Shown here one piece after another: positions 8,801 through 10,152 of a stretch of 64,000 nt of DNA. Both the position numbers and the translations under genes were made by a program. Numbering within the stretch: the stretch's first letter is position 1; each line of letters opens with the position of its first letter. The DNA is from Sumerlaeia bacterium (GTDB lineage Bacteria > Sumerlaeota > Sumerlaeia > SLMS01 > JAHLLQ01), in contig JAVJSW010000046.1 of NCBI GenBank assembly GCA_040219255.1, positions 192,209-256,208 on the forward strand, given 5' to 3'. The notes beneath the pieces are model-generated. The model made no database searches and was not told where the DNA came from. It was given only the letters and a program-made list of their open reading frames with translations.

Positions 8801-10152
8801 ACGCCGAGTTCGACGAGCGCCTGGTCAAGATTCTCAAGAACCTCGACAAGGAAATCGTCAACTTCGAGACGGGGCGCGTGGAAATGAAGCCGGGCGAAGA
8901 GCCGAGCCCCTCGGCCATCACCTATATTCGCCACAGCCTGCAAACCGGTATGCTGCCGGTGGACGGCAAGGTCGGTACGGAAATCAAGAAGCTGTACCAG
9001 GAAGTGCGCACCCGCGAGACGGAGATCGAAGACCGCGCCAAGAACAGCGTCGACCGCATCAAGACCGGCGACGAGCTGCCCCCGGGCGTGATCAAGCTGG
9101 TGAAGGTCTATGTGGCCAACAAGCGCAAGATCAGCGTCGGCGACAAGATGGCCGGCCGGCACGGGAACAAGGGCGTGGTGGCCAAGATCATGCCCATCGA
9201 AGACATGCCGTTCCTTGAGGACGGCACTCCGGTGGACGTGGTACTGAACCCGCTGGGCGTTCCGTCGCGCATGAACGTGGGCCAGATTCTCGAAACACAC
9301 CTGGGCTGGGCCGCTGGTGGCCTGGGACAACTGGTGGCGGAAGTCTGCCGCAAGTCGGGTGCCGCCGCGGCACGTCTCAAGCTGCAAGAGATGTTCACCC
9401 CGTCGAAGCCCATCGTGGAACAATCGCACGACGACAGCCTGTTCTACGACAACAAGGCGAAGATCGACGCGATGAGCGACGATGAAGTTATCGAGTACGC
9501 CAAGGCGAACGAGAAGGGCTTCCGCTTCGCGACACCGGTGTTCGATGGCACGAAGGAAGATGAAATCTGGGATCTGCTGGAGAAGGCGGGCCTGCCCACA
9601 TCGGGTCAGGCGAAGCTGCTCGACGGCAAGACCGGCGAAGCCTTCGACCGGGAAGTGACCGTTGGCCAGATGTACCTGCTCAAGCTCGCCCACCTGGTGG
9701 ACGACAAGATGCACGCGCGCTCTATCGGGCCTTACTCGTTGGTGACGCAACAGCCCCTGGGCGGCTAGGCCCAGTTCGGCGGTCAGCGCTTCGGAGAAAT
9801 GGAAGTGTGGGCGCTGCAGGCTTACGGCGCCGCCTACACTCTTCAGGAGCTTCTGACGGTGAAGTCCGACGACGTGAACGGCCGTACGAAGATCTACGAG
9901 GCCATCGTGAAGGGCCGCACGTCGGTGACGCCGGGCATTCCGGAGTCTTTCAACGTGCTGGTCAAGGAACTGCAGGCTTTGGGTCTGAACCTCGAACTTC
10001 TAGTCGAGGAAGACACCGGCGCCGAAGACGAACAAATTGAAGTGTACGAGGGCGTGGAGGATGACTCCTTCCTCGACGAGGACGACCTGGGGCTCGACGA
10101 TTTCGTGCCCGCGGCGTCTTCCGACAAGGACGAAGCGGACAGCGACGACTAA
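5863..10152 (+). CDS. rpoB: DNA-directed RNA polymerase beta subunit, interrupted by an in-frame TAG at 9766-9768
   Basis: All conserved beta regions present ([49 protein letters not shown]). After QQPLGG the codon is TAG, then the same frame continues [16 protein letters not shown]...[14 protein letters not shown] to TAA 10152. Confidence 0.95.

Follow-up and report, generated by a model that had tools for sequence, protein, structure and literature searches.

Strains of E. coli with amber alleles of rpoB, rpoB(Am), live with sup alleles, and the ochre suppressors that insert Lys derive from tRNA-Lys. In a study on stops proposed to be read through (Int J Mol Sci 2021, PMC7918605), an in-frame stop was counted as real only if at least two independent genomes shared it; the same orthologous position was required, and the rule served to exclude sequencing errors. 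Chen et al. (2020, Genome Res, PMC7111523) describe local assembly errors in uncurated MAGs, with 13 in one genome of 1.13 Mb. We analysed an in-frame TAG in the rpoB gene of a draft genome of a Sumerlaeia bacterium, using the window (the whole stretch of 64,000 nucleotides, to which the positions below refer unless a contig is named) and the assembly from which it was taken. We consider it very probable that this TAG reflects an error of the consensus or of the assembly, or else an unrepresentative allele.

The amber codon in rpoB and its surroundings

The draft genome consisted of 83 contigs and 5.35 Mb, with 63.6% G+C, and was 92.08% complete with 3.32% contamination. rpoB was found on a contig of 256 kb, and the following features of the window concern it:

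2137 to 5423, forward strand: nusG-rplK-rplA-rplJ-rplL (Pfam), upstream of rpoB, the canonical chromosomal context
5863 to 9765, forward strand: rpoB before the stop, with a likely start at ATG 5863 and Rpb2 domains 1-6 (Pfam)
9766 to 9768, forward strand: in-frame TAG of rpoB, at the position of an invariant Lys (K1262 of E. coli beta)
9769 to 10152, forward strand: rpoB after the stop, 127 codons and a TAA at 10150-10152, with Rpb2 domain 7 (Pfam)
9799 to 9801, forward strand: first ATG 3′ of the TAG, the Met of the conserved GEME motif
10256 to 14668, forward strand: rpoC, intact, 1470 aa, with Rpb1 domains 1-5 (Pfam)

The codons around the site read CAA CAG CCC CTG GGC GGC TAG GCC CAG TTC GGC GGT CAG CGC TTC GGA GAA ATG. 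The frame was open from 5782 up to the TAG. The likely start at ATG 5863 agreed with the 1301-aa ORF called in the protein collection (P0022), and the ORF from 9799 to 10152 encoded 117 aa. Reading the window confirmed the initial annotation in that a TAG stood at 9766-9768 in the rpoB frame and was followed by 127 more codons. The same annotation had placed the stop at about E. coli K1262. This residue was indeed the one aligned with the TAG when query residues 24-233, among which the stop was residue 156, were aligned without gaps to residues 1130-1339 of the 1342-aa chain 3lu0_C. It had also described TAG as one base away from AAG, the dominant Lys codon, and the codon usage of the genome agreed with this (AAG 21.5 against AAA 8.4 per 1000).

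RpoB of the window (5863-10152) was about 1429 residues long and included long lineage-specific insertions. Rpb2 domain 6 covered residues 766-1328, against a model of 373 positions, and domain 1 covered residues 59-544. Relatives named Sumerlaeia had RpoB proteins of the same size (1423-1437 aa).

A search for a second rpoB had been proposed, and no second copy was found: the assembly contained one match only, within the canonical nusG-rplKAJL-rpoBC order. The best protein relatives carried the names Sumerlaeia or Sumerlaeota, and the closest one in the protein collection, the window's own ORF aside, was 74% identical over the C-terminal region. In the same collection, the truncated RpoB protein formed a cluster of one member from one contig.

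The site in a near-identical strain and in relatives

Of the words sampled from 4.5 kb surrounding the TAG, 0.47 were present in a public DNA run (X1, contigs, depth about 3). Among its near-identical pieces, the eight longest of those listed totalled 2400 nt and had six differences from the window. One contig of 275 nt covered positions 9693-9967 and had a sole difference, T>A at 9766, which gives AAG; the site is located 74 bases from the end of this contig. The remaining X1 differences in rpoB (8265, 8268, 8587, 8673 and 9297) were all five synonymous, from which it follows that rpoB was under purifying selection until the two strains split. X1 is a slightly different strain and shows the base of a close relative, not that of the source population. 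A difference in a single contig at a depth below 5, as in X1, may itself be an error; we accepted the A at 9766 as true for X1 because it restores a universally conserved codon. The nearest known strain carries the normal Lys codon AAG at the site (depth about 3, thin support). Runs X21 and X22 contained no piece of this strain over 9766. In another run (X2), 33 RNA contigs read A at 9766, and these were rejected as evidence on this strain because they were short pieces of relatives.

None of the 49 relatives with an rpoB match had a stop inside the gene. These were found among 60 relatives searched, of which the other 11 were incomplete genomes or were missed by the query. The motif around the Lys was identical in all 29 relative loci that were fetched, with AAG in 24 and AAA in 5. 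The comparison of rpoB in relatives that the initial annotation had called for thus returned Lys in every locus inspected. In a collection with one genome per species, which may exclude the window's own genome by design, a degenerate DNA motif with TAG at the Lys matched no stretch, and the motif with AAR at this position matched at least 120 stretches from many phyla. Three metagenome contigs matching the 40 bases 3′ of the site all read A at 9766. They were rejected as copies from the same species, since an identity of 77-81% indicates other species. The TAG is private to one assembly.

Stop codons and tRNA genes in the assembly

The release factor gene prfA (RF1) scored 499.8 bits against a cut-off of 423.25 and had an open frame of 404 aa with no stops inside. 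Among 1284 long ORFs with coding-type GC3, 577 ended in TGA, 396 in TAA and 311 in TAG; TAG terminates 24% of long genes. Sixty open, coding-like codons followed in frame after 4 of the 311 TAG, 14 of the 396 TAA and 12 of the 577 TGA stops, and one of the four TAG sites was an ordinary gene boundary. TAG stops translation at least as cleanly as TAA and TGA in this genome, and the code is standard, as far as the assembly shows. The earlier view that TAG is not globally reassigned was upheld by the intact RF1 and the terminator counts. That view had drawn on darT, alkA, greA and a GspE-like gene of the window, all said to end in TAG at their expected C-termini. For the HhH-GPD (alkA-like), GreA and T2SSE/GspE-like genes the TAG was located at the end of the Pfam model, as claimed. 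The darT part could not be retained: no darT was identified in the window, and a pair of small ORFs ending in TAG matched no family at E<=1e-5.

Profile searches of the genome gave a best match of 21.1 bits for PylS, against a cut-off of 178.15, and of 23.7 bits for PylD, against 150.05; in a Methanosarcina control both searches scored over the cut-off. The suggested search for Pyl genes, covering PylS and PylD, thus ended far below the cut-offs. The suggested search for a tRNA with a CUA anticodon was also negative, with none among the 51 or 53 tRNAs called by ARAGORN or the 48 called by Infernal, in an assembly that is 92% complete and without some standard tRNAs. At least tRNA-Pro(UGG) and any normal CUH-reading tRNA-Leu were missing from it. 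Using loose ARAGORN settings (108 to 2506 calls), “tRNA-Pyl” calls were obtained at C42:31324 and C18:54724, and they were rejected for want of an Infernal match.

Three tRNA or tRNA-like genes are considered here:

C60:37328-37412, forward strand: class-II, Leu-type tRNA with anticodon TGC (Infernal, Rfam tRNA 52.6 bits)
C68:282572-282648 (L032:6573-6646): first tRNA-like gene, with anticodon CAG and without a long variable arm (40.5 bits)
C68:283041-283118 (L032:7042-7119): second tRNA-like gene, called “tRNA-Stop(tta)” by ARAGORN (Rfam tRNA 54.5 bits)

The best matches of the Leu-type tRNA in the loci of 11 relatives had the same conserved loop, with the anticodon TAG in ten and AAG in one. 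In this tRNA-Leu(UAG) orthologue, TGC differs from TAG by two adjacent base changes. Taken at face value, the gene would bring Leu to Ala codons, and common Leu codons would have no tRNA to read them. The alternatives are a further consensus error and a genuine tRNA with a Leu body and an Ala anticodon.

The two tRNA-like genes of C68 were about 400 bases apart, just after two genes for RlaP nucleotidyltransferases (PF10127). The second gene can be read with UUA only if G33 is accepted together with C.A pairing within the anticodon stem and C1.A72 pairing; Infernal instead aligned a 9-base anticodon loop, CUGUUAUAA, with UAU. This gene was matched in none of 10 relatives of the same family. 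We rejected it as an ochre suppressor derived from tRNA-Lys, its closest paralogue being a CAU tRNA (0.74 identity), with tRNA-Lys(UUU) in sixth place (0.69). RlaP is presented as part of RNA-repair systems in PMC6514570. We therefore treated the second gene as a putative tRNA-like RNA of a repair cassette and not as a suppressor, and the pair together with the RlaP genes may form an RNA-repair cassette with tRNA-like RNAs.

To look for in-frame stops, the 60 codons flanking each stop of the genome on either side were scored for coding potential, and 62 sites (28 TAA, 23 TGA and 11 TAG) exceeded the strict thresholds, counts that should be read as a lower bound. Ten of them were sent to Pfam and three of those were compared with relatives; rpoB was considered separately and the other 51 were assessed by inspection, with fuller coverage of TAG sites than of TAA and TGA sites. 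By eye, most strict sites had a Met few codons past the stop and represented adjacent genes in one frame. The Pfam searches found two different families side by side at four sites, TPR across the stop at one and no family at five. ZnuA/ABC, NuoB/NuoC, nucleoside transporter/DAHP synthase and HflK/HflC were rejected as adjacent genes, and the TAG at C76:9222 as a gene boundary common to relatives. Loci L036, L037 and L041 gave no Pfam family. A scan with relaxed thresholds (354 sites) was unusable, yielding mostly antisense shadow frames. Apart from the one in rpoB, in-frame stops were observed at the following sites:

C60:149062-149064, reverse strand: in-frame TAG within a surface-type protein of 1071 codons, for which Pfam gave no family
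C33:47753-47755, forward strand: in-frame TGA where four paralogues have Tyr, two adjacent changes away from TAC
C50 about 2511, reverse strand: TAA in a paralogue fragment, where other paralogues have Glu

Homologues of the C60 protein in three relatives (G001, G015 and G021) were continuous across 149064, with Ala, Leu and Leu in the column of the stop. The initial annotation had suggested looking for further in-frame TAGs at conserved Lys positions, and the only other in-frame TAG identified by the scan was this one, at a variable Ala/Leu column. The paralogue family with the C33 TGA and the C50 TAA combines CBM48/AMPK-CBM and TPR domains and was also found at C56:105-1292. Several of its copies were at contig ends or on contigs of 2.7-5.6 kb (C57, C58), which indicates that the family breaks the assembly.

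TAG stops were also observed in two other settings. In the window, a frame of 1511 open codons on the reverse strand (32497-37029) contained TPR repeats and a C-terminal Ser/Thr kinase domain. A PPIC-type rotamase gene (37033-38076, reverse strand) directly precedes it in the same frame, with a single TAG between them whose flanks had no continuous-coding score. On the reverse strand of contig C10, two TAG stops (1488 and 3245) were followed by new starts within a few codons. The peptide after the first of them, MMILITYDVS, resembles what we take to be the N-terminus of Cas2, and a CRISPR-Cas adaptation module may be located at the start of this contig.

With the codon usage of this genome, random one-base nonsense changes give TAG in 57% of cases, TAA in 29% and TGA in 14%. 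Two TAGs among few in-frame stops are therefore the chance expectation. About 2.8% of random coding substitutions create a stop, so that the few nonsense sites would correspond to roughly a hundred odd bases in 5 Mb. Base-calling linked to CCWGG (Dcm-type) methylation was rejected as an explanation: the rpoB site was 6 bases and the tRNA defect 4 bases from the motif, the other stops were 57-216 bases away, and 6.9% of random positions lie within 6 bases of a CCWGG.

Explanations of the rpoB stop and comparison with known systems

If the TAG is an error or an unrepresentative allele, the working rpoB most likely reads AAG (Lys) and the T at 9766 is not its base. The T would then be a one-base consensus or assembly error of a draft MAG or, alternatively, a non-viable or minority variant picked by the assembler. 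No recoding would be involved and the cell would make a normal, full-length beta of about 1429 residues. We infer that the source reads do not have T as the majority base on both strands. An error is favoured because X1 has AAG, because the TAG is private and because the assembly has other implausible defects, and it is the reading that the initial annotation had considered most parsimonious. There it had also been proposed that Lys in relatives, with no suppressor or Pyl machinery in the genome, would point to an artefact, which is largely what we found. In a living population, most cells cannot carry an unsuppressed nonsense codon in an essential gene of single copy, and the genome gives no sign of suppression. 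Both the rpoB TAG and the defect in the Leu-type tRNA of C60 affect essential genes, and consensus errors account for them far more readily than a pair of unrelated biological wonders would. In addition, the finding was picked for its oddness among very many windows, so that a rare error in rpoB is expected somewhere. Some points count against an error. The contig of 256 kb suggests good coverage, under which random read errors seldom reach the consensus, and the assembly has a second in-frame TAG (C60:149064).

That second TAG, in an otherwise intact gene, would also fit a real amber allele of rpoB with a UAG-reading suppressor tRNA that gives full-length beta. The suppressor could be a CUA tRNA in the unassembled 8% of the genome, the tRNA set of the 92% complete assembly being incomplete, or the second C68 tRNA-like gene read with UUA, given its ARAGORN call and its 54.5 bits against the Rfam tRNA model. 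We regard this explanation as very unlikely. The nearest strain has AAG, RF1 is intact, TAG closes 24% of long genes and is no more often followed by coding sequence than the other stops, the second TAG falls at a variable Ala/Leu column, and in-frame TGA and TAA stops are present as well. As to the C68 gene, the UUA reading needs G33 and the C.A pair where Infernal has a 9-base loop with UAU, the nearest paralogue is a CAU tRNA and not tRNA-Lys, and the gene adjoins the two RlaP genes. Slightly less likely again is the full claim of a free-living Sumerlaeota bacterium with a real amber at the Lys equivalent to K1262 and dependent on a natural UAG suppressor tRNA. If this were true, the amount of RNA polymerase available would depend on how active the suppressor is. 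Pyrrolysine, a Lys-inserting suppressor and editing had all been offered as alternatives in the initial annotation, and they are left without support, since PylS and PylD were not detected, no CUA tRNA was found and RF1 is intact.

It is highly improbable that this rpoB is a pseudogene beside an intact second copy that was either left unassembled or collapsed into the same contig. The draft is 92% complete and near-identical duplicates do get collapsed by assemblers, which would allow for such a copy. However, the genome has one rpoB match, in the canonical operon, and the gene shows no other damage, the five other X1 differences being synonymous. None of the 49 relatives with a match had a second full rpoB; in G027 and G032 the additional matches were no more than short fragments.

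A natural split, in which beta is made in two pieces and the C-terminal piece is restarted at ATG 9799 to give a functional enzyme, deserves very little credence. The stop does lie at the Pfam boundary between Rpb2 domains 6 and 7, and a GGAG is located 2 bases 5′ of ATG 9799. Archaea have split beta-type subunits, and E. coli beta tolerates some artificial splits. Nevertheless, there is no start codon between the TAG and ATG 9799, and the restart deletes 10 residues of the motif that is identical in 29 of 29 relatives. This loss had already led the initial annotation to call a true split gene unlikely, a judgement with which we agree; a split at this site was present in no relative among the 49 that had a match. 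The bases GGAGAAATG are the codons of the conserved G-E-M, and TTC GGA GAA ATG GAA is also present in distant relatives, which argues against a special restart signal. Assembly with beta′ moreover requires the C-terminal part of beta.

A pyrrolysine or other dedicated system that recodes UAG at this site in a programmed manner, with conditional synthesis of RNA polymerase, is scarcely conceivable and already close to refuted: only the position itself, a Lys site one base from AAG, favours it, and against it PylS and PylD are far below cut-offs that the Methanosarcina control passes, no CUA tRNA was found and the “tRNA-Pyl” calls of the loosest ARAGORN setting have no Infernal match, the stop is conserved in no relative, and the TAG motif occurs in no other species of the per-species collection.

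As an error or unrepresentative allele, the rpoB TAG most likely has little biological meaning, and its meaning is one of data hygiene. rpoB is a standard phylogenetic and quality marker, and in the public gene call beta ends at the TAG (1301 aa), without its last 127 codons. Unless reads or a second genome support it, one in-frame stop in one draft should not be taken for recoding. This locus provides a checklist for similar finds: a near-identical strain, RF1, the Pyl genes, the anticodons of the tRNAs, terminator usage and other defects of the assembly. If the T were true in the source, this would be a remarkable, natural amber allele of an essential gene kept alive by suppression.

Among known systems, the laboratory amber mutants resemble this locus in that a change from AAG to TAG at an rpoB Lys codon is the type of allele found in such strains. 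Unlike them, this is an environmental bacterium with ordinary TAG stops, in which no suppressor was found and RF1 is intact. The pyrrolysine system (pylTSBCD) is similar in that UAG is read as a Lys-like residue. It differs in that PylS and PylD are absent here and no CUA tRNA was found, and in that the site is an ordinary, invariant Lys of RNA polymerase and not a methylamine methyltransferase site. As in the proposed readthrough stops of PMC7918605, the flanks of the rpoB TAG look functional and are under purifying selection. Unlike those stops, it was found in one genome only and is lacking in the nearest strain, so that it fails the test of that study. The MAG assembly errors, as described in PMC7111523, are like this TAG in that a private, one-base defect in an indispensable gene is contradicted by near-identical data and accompanied by other odd defects. 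The errors described there were identified by missing read support, whereas the one proposed here was identified by X1, the relatives and the other defects of the assembly.
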